Positions 12,534-49,338 of a DNA stretch of 64,000 nucleotides are shown in pieces. The position numbers and the translations under genes were made by a program. The notes under the pieces are model-generated. The model saw nothing but the letters and a program-made list of their open reading frames with translations, did no database searches and had not been told where the DNA came from. Within the stretch, counting starts at the first letter, position 1, and each line of letters begins with the position of its first letter. The stretch is from Dehalococcoidia bacterium (GTDB lineage Bacteria > Chloroflexota > Dehalococcoidia > Plut-88900), in assembly GCA_965207225.1 (NCBI GenBank), contig CBDBLV010000001.1, forward strand, positions 186,239 through 250,238, written 5' to 3'.

Positions 12534-12887
12534 TGGTGGAGACGGGGGAGGGTCGAACTCCCCGTCCAGAAGGTGGCCCCCAGGGCGTCTACAGGCTTAG
12601 ACGGAACTTAAATCTCACCTACCGGGCCGCAACCGACGACGGTGCCGGTAGACCAGCTGATGAGTCTTAGCCTGGCCCTATCAGCGACGGGACAGGAGCA
12701 CCTCGATTTGCATCGCCCTGAGACGGCCTTCGAGGAGAGACCGAACAGGACGGGTTACCTAGTGTCTAGGCAGCCAGTGCCAACTGACGTTTGCCAGTTA
12801 TATCTTTGCCGTTGGTTTAACGAGTCCCACGGCGCCTCGGCCTGCAACCCTGGGTAACCGTGGCTCCTGTCGAACCCACGCGTCCCC
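12534..12887 (-). ncRNA. ssrA: tmRNA
   Basis: 5' GGGGACG...GGGTTCGAC, 3' GTTCGACCCTCCCCGTCTCCACCA; tag frame GKRQLALAA*; adjacent to smpB. Confidence 0.95.
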
Positions 12888-45436: not shown

Positions 45437-46339
45437 ATGGGCCAACTGCTTCCCCTCCTGGCCGCAATGCGACCCAGGCAGTGGACGAAGAACTTCGTCG
45501 TTCTGCTGCCTCTGGCCTTCACCATCAACCTGTCCTGGGACCCGGGTGACGCCGACCAGGTGCTCGAAGTCGTTGGCTACACTGCGGCGGCGTTCGGGCT
45601 GTTCTGTCTGCTCTCATCGGCGGTCTACCTGGTCAATGATTTGGTGGACGCAGAGCGGGACCGCCTGCACCCGAGAAAGGCGGGGAGGGGGGTGGCGTCG
45701 GGACGGGTGTCCAGGTGGGTGGCCGGGTCTGCGGCGGTGGTGTTCGTCGGGGCGGCACTGGCCCTGGGTTTTCTCCTGGAGGTCAGCTACGGCTGGGCGC
45801 AGGTTGCGTATATCGGCATATCAACTGTTTACATAATCGCACTCCGGCAAGTGGTGATACTGGATGTCTTCGGCATATCCGCCGGCTTCGTAGTTCGGGC
45901 GGCGGCAGGGGCGCTGGTCATCTCCGCCGAGCCGTCGCCGTGGCTTTACATATGCACGGGCCTGGGGGCGCTGTTCATCGGGTTTGCCAAGCGGAGGCAG
46001 GAGCTGCTGACGCTGGAGGACGACGGCGCCGGGCACCGGGCCAGCCTGGGCTTCTACTCTATCCCGATGCTCGACCAGCTGATAACGATGCTCATGGCGG
46101 CGACCCTCATCGCGTATATCCTCTACACCTTCACGGCCGACAACCTGCCGCCCAACGATGCGATGATGTTCACCATCCCCTTCGTGGTTTTCGGGATAGC
46201 CCGGTACTTCTACCTCATCCACGCTAAGCAGGCGGGGGGCAGCCCGGAGGATATCCTGATCAGGGACGTCCCGATACTGCTCACGGTGGTGGGATGGGTC
46301 GCCGCCACGGTGGGGATACTGCTGGCGTACCGGGGGTAA
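45437..46339 (+). CDS. UbiA-family prenyl-phosphate phosphoribosyltransferase
   Basis: RPRQWTKN, NDLVD..RDRLHP.K, KRRQE. Confidence 0.9.
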   Translation: MGQLLPLLAAMRPRQWTKNFVVLLPLAFTINLSWDPGDADQVLEVVGYTAAAFGLFCLLSSAVYLVNDLVDAERDRLHPRKAGRGVASGRVSRWVAGSAAVVFVGAALALGFLLEVSYGWAQVAYIGISTVYIIALRQVVILDVFGISAGFVVRAAAGALVISAEPSPWLYICTGLGALFIGFAKRRQELLTLEDDGAGHRASLGFYSIPMLDQLITMLMAATLIAYILYTFTADNLPPNDAMMFTIPFVVFGIARYFYLIHAKQAGGSPEDILIRDVPILLTVVGWVAATVGILLAYRG

Positions 46340-46374
46340 ATGCCCGCCCGTGGAGCGGGGGGTATCCCCTCCTT

Positions 46375-46666
46375 GTAGGGGCGATCGACTGGTCGCCCTC
46401 CCAGGGCGGAGGGGCCGCTCATGCTGAGGCCACTCGAAGTATGAGCGGGGGGAGGCCCACGCAATTCTCATCCGTCGCGCCCTTCCACCCCCCCCACCCA
46501 GAACATTTGACTTCTTAGCACCCCCATTCTATAATCTCCCCCAGACCCGGATCCCGACCCGCCGCATCGCCGAAAAAACTGAACTGCCGAACCGGCCGAA
46601 AGGACTGCCGTATGACCAACAAGTCCCCTGTACTCTCCCCTGTAGGGGTGCCCCTCGTGGGTACCC
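46375..46666 (+). repeat. Two GTAG-led REP-like hairpins
   Basis: GTAG-GGGCGA..TCGCCC (46375-46398); GTAG-GGGTGCCC..GGGTACCC (46642-46666). Confidence 0.55.
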
Positions 46667-46845
46667 TGGGCGCCACCCAGGCGAAGACCCCACAAAACCC
46701 GCAACCAAACCTCTTGACACATAACGCACAATAGTGCTATCATACCTGCCGACCGACCCGGGCCCCGACCCCTCGGACCCGCTGCATCGCCGAAACAAAC
46801 TGAATTGCCGAACTGGCTGAAAGGACTGCCGAATGAGCAGAAAGA
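46507..46845 (+). promoter_or_regulatory. Tandemly duplicated promoter-leader-RBS unit
   Basis: TTGACT-17-TATAAT (46507-46535) and TTGACA-18-TATCAT (46714-46743), each followed by near-identical GCATCGCCGAAA...GAAAGGACTGCCG-N-ATG leader (ATG 46612, 46833). Confidence 0.8.
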
Positions 46846-47237
46846 CCCGTACCCCCTCCCAACCCCCGCGCCCCGAGTCCAAAGAACCCCAGGGCAACCA
46901 GACCCAAAAGCCCGGCGCCCCGGACGACTCCCCCAACCCCAACCAGAGCCCCGGAATCACGGGCGAAAGGACCTTCGAGTCCCGAAGCGCCCCCGGCCTG
47001 GACAGAGAGATATCCATGCTCCGCGGCCGTCTCCGAAAGTTCATCAAGGCCAAGAAGGTCCGCAACAGAGACGCCCAACTGACTAAGACCCTCGATCTCC
47101 TGATTCGCGCCCTCGCCGCCAAGGCTCGCCTCTACCCTGGCTCCTCCGCACCCACCGAGGAGAGCATCGAGAATATGCTCAAAGGAGCCTCCGAAAAGTT
47201 CGGCCTCAAGATAATCCCATGGGAATCAAACTGCTAA
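46833..47237 (+). CDS. Putative terminase small-subunit-like protein
   Basis: AAAGGA RBS; helical GLDREISMLRGRLR core; position ahead of TerL (function inferred). Confidence 0.5.
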   Translation: MSRKTRTPSQPPRPESKEPQGNQTQKPGAPDDSPNPNQSPGITGERTFESRSAPGLDREISMLRGRLRKFIKAKKVRNRDAQLTKTLDLLIRALAAKARLYPGSSAPTEESIENMLKGASEKFGLKIIPWESNC

Positions 47238-47455
47238 TCAACATCATGAACATCCTCCAACGTAAACCCCACACCGCCCCGCCCCCGGCCATCAAGCCCG
47301 AGTCCACCTTTGACGCCGTCCTCGAAATGCGCCTCGCAGAGCTCCAACGGCATGTCGCCGAGATCAAGGGCCGCATCAACACCCTCTTCTTCTTTGTCAT
47401 GATCGCCGCCATCCTCCAGTTCGTCTTCGGCATCACCGGTGTCACCCCTTGGTAG
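47219..47455 (+). CDS. Small coiled-coil protein with C-terminal TM anchor
   Basis: RLAELQRHVAEIKGRINTL then hydrophobic tail; overlaps both neighbours. Confidence 0.65.
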   Translation: MGIKLLINIMNILQRKPHTAPPPAIKPESTFDAVLEMRLAELQRHVAEIKGRINTLFFFVMIAAILQFVFGITGVTPW

Positions 47456-48837
47456 CTTTCGACGACCTCAGGCCCTACCAGAACCGGATAGCCCAGGCTG
47501 TCTTCGATAGCGTCCAGTTCCACAAGGGCCTTACCTTCTCCGTCATGGTAGCCCGCCAGGGCGGCAAGAACGAGATTTCCGCCTGGATCGAAGCCGCACT
47601 CCTTTCCGCCTATGTCCGCTCCACCGTGACCGCCATAAAGGCCGCCCCCACCTTTCATCCCCAGGCCCTCATCAGCATCTCCCGACTCGAAAAAGTCCTA
47701 CGGCGCATGGACGTCTATTACCAACTCGAACGCGGCCGTTCATTCCACGTCGGCCGCGCCCGGCAGCTATTCCTCAGCGCCCACCCCACCAGCAACGTTA
47801 TCGGCAATACCGCCAGCCTCCTCCTCGAAATCGACGAGTCTCAGGACGTCTCTCCCGATAAGTTCAACCGCGACTTCGTTCCCATGGCAGCCCATAACAA
47901 CGTCACTACCGTCCACTACGGCACCGCTTGGAGCGACCATTCCCTCCTCGAGCAGGTCAAACAGTCCAACCTCGAGATTCAACGCTCCGACGGCATCCAG
48001 CGCCACTTTGAGTTCGACTGGCAGGCCGTAGCCCAGCACAACCCTCACTATCAGCGCTTCATCGAGGCCGAACAGCAGCGCCTCGGCAGCGATCACCCCC
48101 TGTTCCTCTCCCAGTACTGCCTCACTCCCGTTTCCGACGATGGAAGGTTCCTGGACAATACCCGGCAGGCCCTCCTTAAGGGCAATCACAGCCGTTGCAG
48201 CGCACCCTTGGAAGGGCGCACCTACGTGGCCGGCATAGACCTTGCTGGCGAATCGGAAGAGCCCGCCAACCGCGGGCTAAGGGCCTCCGAGCCCTTGAGA
48301 GACTCCACTGTCGTCACCATCGGCGAACTCCGCTACCTTGACGACGGGTTCGGGTCTAAGCTTCCCACCCTTAGTGTGGTCGAGCACTTCTGGTGGACAG
48401 GTAAGCCCCACACCGAGATCTTCTCGACCCTCGTTCACATCCTTAAAAACGTGTGGGCATGCCGCAGGGTAGTAGTCGACGCTACTGGTGTCGGTGCAGG
48501 CGTCGCCGCCTTCCTGCGTAAGTCTCTGGGAACCTCCATCGTCAAACCCTTCACCTTCACCGCCAAAAGCAAATCACAGCTGGGCTTCGACCTCCTCGCC
48601 GCCATCAACTCCGCCAGGCTCCACACCTACAAGCCCGACGGCTCCCCCGAATCCACCGAGTTCTGGTCCCAAATCTCTAAAGCAAAGAGCGTAGTAAGAC
48701 CCAACCAGACCATCAACTTCTTCGTAGACCCCTCCGAAGGCCACGACGACTTCCTCTCCTCCCTCGCCCTCCTCGTCCAGGCCTCCCACTACATCCCCCG
48801 CCGCGCCACCGGCCGCCTGAGGCAAGGCTATGAATAA
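47449..48837 (+). CDS. Phage-type terminase large subunit
   Basis: LRPYQ, Walker A ARQGGKN, Walker B LLEIDESQ, YGTA, nuclease GIDLAG, VVVDATGVG, HDDFLSSLAL. Confidence 0.85.
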   Translation: MVAFDDLRPYQNRIAQAVFDSVQFHKGLTFSVMVARQGGKNEISAWIEAALLSAYVRSTVTAIKAAPTFHPQALISISRLEKVLRRMDVYYQLERGRSFHVGRARQLFLSAHPTSNVIGNTASLLLEIDESQDVSPDKFNRDFVPMAAHNNVTTVHYGTAWSDHSLLEQVKQSNLEIQRSDGIQRHFEFDWQAVAQHNPHYQRFIEAEQQRLGSDHPLFLSQYCLTPVSDDGRFLDNTRQALLKGNHSRCSAPLEGRTYVAGIDLAGESEEPANRGLRASEPLRDSTVVTIGELRYLDDGFGSKLPTLSVVEHFWWTGKPHTEIFSTLVHILKNVWACRRVVVDATGVGAGVAAFLRKSLGTSIVKPFTFTAKSKSQLGFDLLAAINSARLHTYKPDGSPESTEFWSQISKAKSVVRPNQTINFFVDPSEGHDDFLSSLALLVQASHYIPRRATGRLRQGYE

Positions 48838-48882
48838 TCCCACCCCCAAACCCTCCCTTTTCCCTTCCCCCAGTACTGAACT

Positions 48883-48968
48883 AGGGGCAGACGTTGGCGC
48901 TTCAGCGCCAACGTCTGCCCCTGTTCTTCTCTCCCCCTCTCCCTTGAAGGCCCTAAGGGAGAGGGGGA
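48883..48968. repeat. Two long hairpins after terminase (REP-like/terminator)
   Basis: AGGGGCAGACGTTGGCGC-ttca-GCGCCAACGTCTGCCCCT; CCCCCTCTCCCTT...AAGGGAGAGGGGG. Confidence 0.75.
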
Positions 48969-49105
48969 CCAAGGGGTAGAGGGTTCCCCTCGCGTACCTT
49001 AAACAATCAAAGCCGTGCCTGAAAACGCAAAACAATCATATCGCCCAAGCCCTTTCATCTGGGCTCAATTTGAACGCCACCCCGCTCGGAGACGGGTGGG
49101 TGAGA

Positions 49106-49135
49106 TTGACAGGTGGAGGGTGGGCAAACTATAAT
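49106..49135 (+). promoter_or_regulatory. Consensus sigma70 promoter of rpmH operon
   Basis: TTGACA-18nt-TATAAT. Confidence 0.8.
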
Positions 49136-49160
49136 CGGCATCCCTAAACGAGTCTGAAAC

Positions 49161-49298
49161 ATGCCTAAAAGGACATACCAACCGAAGAGGCTGCCTCGAA
49201 AGAGGAAGCACGGATTCCGGGCCCGGATGAGTACGCGCGGCGGACGATACGTAATACAGCGGCGTCGGGCGAAGGGCCGGACCAGACTGGCCGTTTAG
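49161..49298 (+). CDS. rpmH: 50S ribosomal protein L34
   Basis: Hand-translated [45 protein letters not shown]. Confidence 0.97.
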
Positions 49299-49338
49299 GG
49301 CTTACTACTTCGAACATTAAAGAAAGGGGAGCCCGCTG

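Follow-up and report, generated by a model that had tools for sequence, protein, structure and literature searches.

The terminase cassette between ubiA and rpmH

Within a 64,000-nucleotide stretch of DNA from a Dehalococcoidia bacterium, the whole of which is referred to here as the window, three genes lie on the + strand between a gene for a UbiA-family prenyltransferase and rpmH. They were designated orfA, orfB and TerL; orfA and orfB overlap by 19 nt and orfB and TerL by 7 nt, and the last gene encodes the large subunit of a phage-type terminase (Table 1). The cassette is intact and represents an additional, paralogous version of the packaging genes in a small set of phage-derived genes for a particle. 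This set consists of orfA, orfB, TerL, a small helix-turn-helix (HTH) protein, a portal protein, a scaffold, a capsid, an adaptor and a 663-aa tail protein. Located in the chromosome and without an integrase, it extends through the class Dehalococcoidia and into other classes of the phylum Chloroflexota, is usually present in one copy, and is often scattered yet intact. No portal, capsid, integrase or other phage-like genes were found near the window cassette, nor were genes for replication or a primase observed at the cassettes. The initial annotation of this locus had described three overlapping genes between ubiA and rpmH, intact TerL motifs, the lack of phage-like neighbours and host-type promoters, all of which was borne out: the open reading frames (ORFs), the alignment and the fold agree with it, the portal, scaffold, capsid, adaptor and tail genes were located by tblastn only on another contig, and two sigma-70-like sites precede orfA.

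The three proteins

Alignment of 29 TerL sequences (alignment A1), which share 39-100% identity with the window protein, revealed invariant residues in the Walker A motif (R36, Q37, G39, K40 and N41) and the Walker B motif (E127, D129 and E130), as well as at G158, T159, D264, D344 and D434. The AlphaFold2 model of TerL (pLDDT 87.5) resembles most closely, in a Foldseek search of the PDB, the large terminases of Sf6, HK97, D6E and T4 (E 2e-16 to 1e-14, TM up to 0.67), and the ATPase domains of P74-26 and T4 were also among the fold matches. With the A1 profile, matches were obtained to the terminases of G20c and P74-26 in their nuclease domains (E 0.005), D344 and the GHDD motif being aligned with the nuclease of G20c. 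Among cultured phages, Bacillus phage vB_BboS-125 has the most similar protein, a terminase (31.8% identity over 96% of the length, E 2e-47) whose gene is followed by a portal gene. PHROGs returned two weak matches to terminase large subunits over TerL residues 332-435 (E 1.5e-4 and 7.8e-4), phmmer against the PDB returned nothing, NCBIfam gave chance matches only, and Pfam did not recognize orfA, orfB or TerL. Based on its motifs and its modelled fold, the window TerL can be held to be a true large terminase, and packaging activity is predicted for it. It has no adjoining portal gene; the paralog on contig C5 is portal-linked, as is TerL in 32 of 54 class loci, in which the portal gene lies within the stretch examined.

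OrfA has a pI of 10.2. Its AlphaFold2 model (mean pLDDT 64.8) consists of a disordered, proline-rich segment of about 50 residues followed by helices at residues 54-72, 79-100 and 109-123. No match was found in Pfam, PHROGs or NCBIfam; the best profile match in the PDB was to an unrelated protein (E 0.14), the best fold match in BFVD, searched with the low-confidence model of OrfA, had E 0.076, and Atlas offered only weak leads, with T5_Terminase_small at 0.81. Its gene lies directly upstream of TerL in 69 of 80 loci fetched from the IMG/VR collection of viral contigs and in most chromosomal loci. OrfB carries a hydrophobic stretch at its C-terminus (residues 57-75, Kyte-Doolittle mean 2.34) behind a helical N-terminal part and is therefore predicted to be a tail-anchored membrane protein. 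The initial annotation had called a membrane protein between the terminase genes atypical of phages. OrfB is no peculiarity of this locus: it was detected in 25 of 54 chromosomal class loci, compared with 2 of the 80 IMG/VR contigs.

The second cassette and the particle genes

A tblastn search of the whole genome to which the window belongs (G000) located a second cassette at C5:241272-243287. Its products are 32% (OrfA), 81% (OrfB) and 77% (TerL) identical to those of the window, and the homology between the two cassettes begins at window position 46708, just upstream of the promoter-like site P2, and ends exactly at the TerL stop codon. Next to the C5 cassette is an SPP1-type portal gene (PF05133, SPP1_portal, 2.7e-17; phrog_64, 2.6e-30), and about 8 kb from the cassette lie a scaffold-like gene, an HK97-type capsid gene, an SU10-type adaptor gene and the gene for the 663-aa tail protein. 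Homologs of these proteins matched phrog_212 (capsid, 2.5e-72), SU10_adaptor (PF24175, 3.7e-11) and the tail-protein family phrog_1887 (663-aa protein, 1.6e-5). The portal, scaffold, capsid, adaptor and tail protein genes each occur once in the genome, all of them on C5, where the set is flanked by glycolytic, transporter and dehydrogenase genes; the HTH gene is missing there. Altogether the gene set of this genome is split over three loci. The integrase of the free relatives described below has matches in the genome only at C5:1427058 and C4:405617.

These results alter the initial picture in several respects. It had been suggested that unlinked portal, capsid and tail genes should be looked for elsewhere in the genome, and they are present on C5. 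The same suggestion foresaw that they would share the leader preceding orfA, which proved wrong: that leader is found at the two cassettes only, is absent from the rest of the genome, and does not occur at the capsid or tail genes. Nor is the stand-alone terminase the only one of the system, since the window copy is an extra paralog specific to the genus and a second cassette lies beside the portal gene.

Multiple cassettes in the genus

Twenty-one cassette copies were found in the nine genomes examined from the window's genus, one to four per genome and at least two in eight of them; several full cassettes per genome were seen in this genus only. The cassette between ubiA and rpmH, which are its conserved left and right neighbors, is present in eight of the nine genomes, and none was shown in G004 with the query used. 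It has the orientation of the window in G000, G003, G005 and G006 and is inverted in G001, G002, G007 and G008. A comparison of G005 with G007 revealed an inverted 1.9-kb block with 90.5% identity between collinear flanks. Five of the eight ubiA-rpmH cassettes lack orfB.

The genus copies form one clade, within which they group neither by locus nor by genome. Trees that unite the ubiA-rpmH copies, or the portal-linked copies, were rejected by approximately unbiased (AU) tests (p 0.0003 and 0.0024, respectively), in which the groups had been named after the tree was first seen. The cassette copies exchange sequence between loci. The closest relatives of the window cassette are the portal-linked copies of G002 and G006 (85% identity in TerL; 76% in OrfA of G002), compared with 74-81% between the window TerL and the ubiA-rpmH copies of other species. 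Among the spare cassettes, orfA is the most divergent gene, with 27-76% identity, compared with 74-86% in TerL, and its variation is concentrated in the N-terminal half and in a variable insert. The GC skew at third codon positions ranges from -0.43 to -0.55 in the window cassette and from +0.08 to +0.38 in its co-oriented neighbors, a signature of the opposite strand that was read as a recent flip or copy. In the C5 copy, which lies on the other strand, C likewise exceeds G at third positions, as it does in the neighbors of that copy.

All 21 copies are open, the copy at L058 being cut by the end of its contig, and every catalytic residue is kept. The ratio of nonsynonymous to synonymous substitution rates (dN/dS) in TerL has a median of 0.29 and a range of 0.10-0.43 (171 pairs), with values of 0.19-0.32 for the window copy against the others. 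The purifying selection foreseen in the initial annotation is therefore evident. A single TerL copy, another of its proposed checks, is usual across the class and not in the window's own genus.

Distribution in the class and the phylum

More than 3330 relatives of TerL were found in the protein database; the best 120 are 54-100% identical, and many of the best originate from assemblies named Dehalococcoidia or Chloroflexi by NCBI. Whole-genome searches detected TerL, almost without exception as a single copy, in 107 of the 151 class genomes (85 of the 124 high-quality ones) and the capsid gene in 89. Both genes occur together in 87 genomes, TerL alone in 20, the capsid gene alone in 2 and neither in 42. 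Across the phylum TerL was found in 76 of 201 genomes, a count that includes the unpublished genome G194. Most families outside the class that were named in the tally have the gene in nearly all members or in none (for example 11/13, 7/8 and 3/3 versus 0/13, 0/13, 0/13, 0/11 and 0/8). The capsid protein is 52-74% identical across families, and its reading frames are open. Among the carriers of the full set is genus g74, in which TerL, capsid and tail genes are all present.

Across 54 chromosomal loci, which represent more than 20 families, the common core order is orfA-orfB-TerL-HTH-portal. Genes for HIT and/or HD proteins adjoin orfA in seven families and in seven of the nine canonical loci of the genus. 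An integrase of the type carried by the free element L136 (see below) was found in none of three sets of 58, 54 and 20 chromosomal loci. As 14 loci of the first set recur in the second, 118 different loci were covered, and in the 74 fetched for the class and phylum surveys none lay within about 8 kb. Of 11 chromosomal loci scanned, 10 have no tRNA gene next to the module, and in the eleventh (L033) a tRNA-Glu gene lies about 5 kb beyond orfA; a tRNA attachment site next to the module was accordingly rejected. Where TerL and the capsid gene share one contig (42 genomes), they are within 15 kb of each other in 25, at 15-100 kb in 10 and beyond 100 kb in 7, so that 17 of the 42 genomes have them more than 15 kb apart. 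The largest separation is 718 kb, and both frames stay open in these genomes.

A rearranged module was observed in genus g48 (loci L146-L148 of G058, G126 and G078), whose genomes are small (1.4-1.5 Mb). TerL contains a stop codon in G126 and is shortened in G078, and the capsid gene was not found. The gene set looks decayed in this genus.

Descent of TerL and its free relatives

On a tree of 139 TerL sequences, in which 7 of the 21 genus copies were kept, 10 of the 13 host families with several members form single clades (a single change), and three host groups do not. Comparison of TerL with RpoB was based on 41 genomes with both genes; G000 was represented by its C5 copy and G095 by the first of its two, with G010, G012, G017, G021 and G035 left out. 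The two trees share 17 of 38 splits, compared with 0.2 on average and at most 2 after shuffling of the labels. Mantel rho between the distances is 0.38 (none of 999 permutations was as high) and remains 0.33 with one genome per family (21 genomes; 22 of 999 as high); the median TerL distance is 1.2 times the RpoB distance. The congruence of TerL with RpoB is real but partial; it fits mainly vertical descent with some transfer, and also phages confined to a single host lineage. The agreement with the host tree that had been put forward as a check is found for the 17 shared splits and not for the remaining 21.

TerL of this type is encoded by 359 IMG/VR contigs, 80 of which were fetched. Their gene order is orfA-TerL-portal-scaffold-capsid-adaptor-(small gene)-tail protein, with HTH matches anywhere in the stretch in 17 of the 80 loci, and their TerL proteins are 50-56% identical to that of the window. 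On the 139-sequence tree, all integrase-bearing elements fall into one clade of 88 rows (support 99), and most of the chromosomal copies form host-family clades outside it.

A candidate gene transfer agent-like system

The presence of an integrase-less, phage-like particle set in many Chloroflexota chromosomes makes it a candidate for a system resembling gene transfer agents (GTAs), of which dispersal, conservation, purifying selection and partial congruence with the host are genomic hallmarks. We lean, with slightly better than even confidence, to the interpretation that the window holds a spare terminase cassette of such a domesticated module and that spare cassettes serve alternative DNA recognition or expression. 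According to this scenario, the domesticated set would, like a GTA, give rise to a small tailed particle. OrfA would be the DNA-recognizing small terminase, TerL would cut DNA and pump it into procapsids built from the C5 genes, and OrfB might hold the terminase complex at the membrane. The spare cassettes would then offer one capsid alternative DNA recognition or expression. The initial annotation had proposed a dispersed GTA-like system of the Chloroflexota; the rest of the set on C5, its conservation in the class and the phylum, the purifying selection and the partly host-congruent descent agree with that proposal, and its status as a GTA is that of a candidate known from genes alone.

A further-reaching model, to which we assign a fairly low probability, combines these elements. 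An ancient GTA-like system, derived from a small short-tailed phage, would extend across much of the Chloroflexota, and in one genus its terminase would have become a swappable, multi-copy cassette. Units of promoter, orfA, orfB and TerL with divergent DNA-recognition subunits would recombine between fixed sites, one of them invertible and located beside rpmH, and thereby decide what the single capsid set packages; TerL fragments elsewhere in the genome may be packaging start sites.

Several observations speak against a domesticated system. The particle is known here from genes alone, and kinship of OrfA with any small terminase was undetectable by the searches described. Among the class genomes, 42 of 151 have neither TerL nor the capsid gene, 20 have TerL without a capsid gene, and in-frame stops interrupt at least 5 of the 107 best TerL matches (G010, G092, G097, G098 and G126). 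The 21 TerL splits that differ from RpoB have to be set against the 17 shared ones, only 3 of which span several families, and phages bound to one host lineage would also cluster by host family. Core genes usually evolve under tighter constraint than a dN/dS of 0.29 indicates, and the exchange between loci was tested on groups chosen after the fact. Finally, a tyrosine integrase lies upstream in 37 of the 80 IMG/VR loci, and L136, an IMG/VR contig of 18.4 kb (18,400 bases), has a 62-bp terminal repeat together with an integrase. L136 also encodes an HNH nuclease, a methylase, a DNA-polymerase-beta-thumb protein, the head and tail module and a lectin-like fibre (Laminin_G_3); no replication gene was recognized in it, and it is probably a complete, circular small temperate element. 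Since integrase-bearing free relatives exist, reinfection could explain part of the spread.

One alternative is that the chromosomal modules still belong, as prophages or satellites, to an active family of small temperate tailed phages, with the extra cassettes redirecting packaging as the small terminases of satellites do. The number of IMG/VR contigs, the compact gene order of those fetched, the complete and circular appearance of L136 and the three host groups that are not single clades on the TerL tree would fit. We nevertheless consider this unlikely. No integrase was present in any chromosomal locus examined, the integrase-bearing elements are confined to one clade with most chromosomal copies in host-family clades outside it, and the scattering of the genes over tens to hundreds of kilobases makes excision as a single unit impossible. 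At the window, the read depth of the cassette equals that of its chromosomal flanks and independent contigs tile the locus, a check made on contigs of one sample. This tiling showed no excision joint; a joint that skips 726 nt was put down to TerL-like repeats, its shorter side being just 21 letters long. Replication and primase genes, as stated, were not seen at the cassettes, and the integrase, attachment repeats and contiguous genome of a functional temperate prophage were not found. It had been stated beforehand that closest homologs in complete prophages, together with relaxed selection on this copy, would point to an ordinary remnant; close relatives do occur in small integrase-bearing elements, but these form one clade of the tree.

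A similarly low probability is assigned to ordinary decay, according to which a small temperate phage would have lost its integrase and left the set behind as a cryptic remnant, the window cassette being a functionless duplicate, spread by repeat recombination and now eroding. Integrase-bearing relatives, in-frame stops in some genomes, TerL without a capsid gene in others, degenerate TerL pieces within repeats at 7-10 places in the genome, the loss of orfB from five of eight ubiA-rpmH cassettes and of the HTH gene from the C5 locus, and the REP-like repeats flanking the cassette are all compatible with erosion. Arguing against it are the 21 open genus copies with their catalytic residues and a dN/dS of 0.29, the intactness of TerL and the capsid gene even when 718 kb apart, and the conservation of the set across the class and the phylum, with capsid identities of 52-74%. 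Such conservation far outlasts a dead prophage.

Least probable, in our view, is an exaptation in which the stand-alone cassette no longer fills capsids and serves as a DNA translocase or nuclease tethered to the membrane, directed for instance at invading phage DNA or employed in taking up or exporting DNA: the isolation of the cassette far from the portal gene, the translational coupling of a tail-anchored membrane protein between orfA and TerL, the cassette's own strong promoters and the strong variation of orfA between copies would suit it, but orfB also belongs to the portal-linked canonical cassette of many families and is absent from most ubiA-rpmH cassettes, stand-alone and portal-linked TerL proteins intermix on the tree with the same motifs, and none of the PADLOC defence families matches orfA, orfB or TerL. 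The earlier ideas of a phage-interference factor and of a membrane-tethered translocase are unsupported.

Comparison with known systems

Among the most similar known systems are the GTAs of the RcGTA type in Rhodobacter capsulatus and other Alphaproteobacteria. Like RcGTA, the Chloroflexota set comprises phage-derived head and tail genes that reside in the chromosome without an integrase, occur in a large host clade under purifying selection and have partly co-diverged with their hosts; in both, the genes are split over several loci and have host-type promoters. The Chloroflexota set differs in stemming from another phage lineage (its TerL resembles that of Bacillus phage vB_BboS-125 most closely, and its capsid belongs to phrog_212). 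It has only some 9-10 genes, among them a single one for a large tail protein; a gene for a tail tube or a tape measure was not recognized. It includes a membrane protein between the terminase genes, its terminase cassette is multi-copy in one genus, and integrase-bearing free relatives persist. In contrast to RcGTA, it is known from genes alone, and packaging of host DNA is a candidate function only.

TerL shares with Sf6 gp2, HK97 TerL, D6E TerL and T4 gp17 (PDB 4iei, 6z6d, 5oea and 3cpe) the two-domain fold, the Walker A and B motifs and the acidic triad of the nuclease. However, identity to these terminases is only 11-20%, the window copy has no adjacent portal gene, and the Walker A motif of the window family ends in GKN, with N41 invariant, whereas the usual ending is GK[ST].

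Phage-inducible chromosomal islands and satellites, some of which have small terminase or capsid genes of their own, offer another comparison. As in these islands, the packaging genes lie apart from a full phage, and variable small subunits could redirect packaging. The window cassette differs from them in lacking an integrase, a replication module and a repressor, in its fixed position between core genes across the genus and in the presence of a capsid set of the same origin in the same genome. A further comparison is with the small temperate IMG/VR elements represented by L136, which have the same order from orfA to the tail gene and a TerL 50-56% identical to that of the window. Unlike the window cassette, they carry an integrase, an HNH nuclease, a methylase and a lectin-like fibre, mostly lack orfB and have few HTH genes.

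GTAs are known from a handful of lineages, chiefly Alphaproteobacteria. A full-text literature search returned no GTA of Chloroflexi, Chloroflexota or Dehalococcoidia in the titles and the opening parts of the abstracts. If the interpretation as a GTA-like module is true, the set would represent a second, independently domesticated GTA system, spanning a class or a phylum. It would indicate how genes may be exchanged in this group, to which organohalide respirers as well as abundant marine and sponge-associated lineages belong. It would also explain the hundreds of 'viral' IMG/VR contigs with this module. The multi-copy terminase cassettes of variable orientation would amount to a natural experiment on the evolution of packaging specificity after the taming of a phage.

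Layout and control sites of the window cassette

The features of the cassette and its surroundings are listed in Table 1. Upstream of orfA, positions 46507-46743 contain a tandem duplication of the promoter, the leader and the first orfA codons, with a dispersed repeat between the copies. Leader copy 1 is followed by a stub of the start of orfA, a 40-aa ORF (46612-46734). The tandem duplication of promoter and leader is also present at the C5 cassette and at other cassettes of the genus (G005, G008). Three sigma-70-like promoter sites were found in the region, compared with 0.6 expected. The leader of about 85 nt has a nucleotide identity of 88-98% among the genus cassettes, compared with 78% for the coding part. 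No stable fold of the leader was detected (z -0.56); it could be an operator or a recombination arm.

The repeat that follows TerL contains a perfect 19-bp hairpin (48883-48922) with a T-rich tail and is terminator-like, and a second hairpin of 14 bp lies at 48932-48968. On both sides of the cassette the intergenic DNA is filled with short, hairpin-forming dispersed repeats, three units of which are present in about 125, 36-68 and 20 copies. Terminal inverted repeats around the cassette were also considered, and no flanking pair of inverted or direct repeats was found. An Rfam search of positions 46200-49300 gave nothing above the gathering score, the weak matches falling on the REP hairpins.

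Table 1. Features of the window cassette and its surroundings, and degenerate copies of the middle of TerL on contigs of the same genome (G000)
Feature	Position	Strand	Remarks
UbiA-family prenyltransferase gene, left flank	45437..46339	+	Pfam PF01040, E 1.7e-15; host gene, outside cassette
REP-like dispersed repeats between ubiA and cassette	46350..46500	.	36-68 copies by blastn against own genome
Promoter-like site P1	46507..46535	+	TTGACT, 17 nt, TATAAT; 11/12 matches
Leader copy 1	46540..46627	+	81.5% identical to second leader at 46757-46848
Short dispersed repeat inserted after orfA stub	46635..46688	.	about 20 genome copies, 84-96% identity
Promoter-like site P2	46714..46743	+	TTGACA, 18 nt, TATCAT; TG before second hexamer; 11/12 matches
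Leader copy 2, 5' untranslated region of orfA	46750..46832	+	in own genome only at the two cassettes
orfA	46833..47237	+	134 aa; small, basic, helical; TerS-like by position only
orfB	47219..47455	+	78 aa; predicted tail-anchored membrane protein
TerL	47449..48837	+	462 aa; ATPase domain and RNase H-like nuclease domain
Part of TerL, about residues 197-372	48039..48564	+	recurs as degenerate non-coding fragments elsewhere in own genome
REP-like repeat directly after TerL stop	48850..49000	.	123-127 genome copies
rpmH, right flank	49161..49298	+	45-aa ORF; followed by what are presumably rnpA-, yidD- and yidC-like ORFs; names, including rpmH, assumed from the sequences and general knowledge; host genes
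Degenerate TerL middle (about residues 194-374)	C4:456243-457418		
Degenerate TerL middle	C5:1617003-1618472		
Degenerate TerL middle	C5:1894624-1896294		
Degenerate TerL middle	C5:1307607-1309421		
Degenerate TerL middle	C4:332434-334116		
Degenerate TerL middle	C2:254359-255789		
Degenerate TerL middle	C3:315299-316774		

TerL-derived fragments and other observations

The middle part of TerL recurs in the genome as degenerate, non-coding fragments. By blastn, the window segment is 70-72% identical to places at C5:1617191 and C4:456472 and to five shorter ones. The fragments share one 5' junction, some have an internal tandem duplication, and they are embedded in composite repeat arrays; similar partial TerL matches are abundant in all genomes of the genus. 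A terminase-like transposase, that is, a multi-copy mobile gene, was considered for these matches and rejected, as they are degenerate non-coding pieces in composite repeats.

The window also contains a tmRNA gene (12534-12887) with the tag peptide GKRQLALAA. One of the TerL fragments is adjoined by an element of at least 800 bases (C4:457320-458200), which recurs at C4:503419, C5:1203745 and C1:39614. The four copies are 96-99% identical, and the element is probably an insertion sequence.

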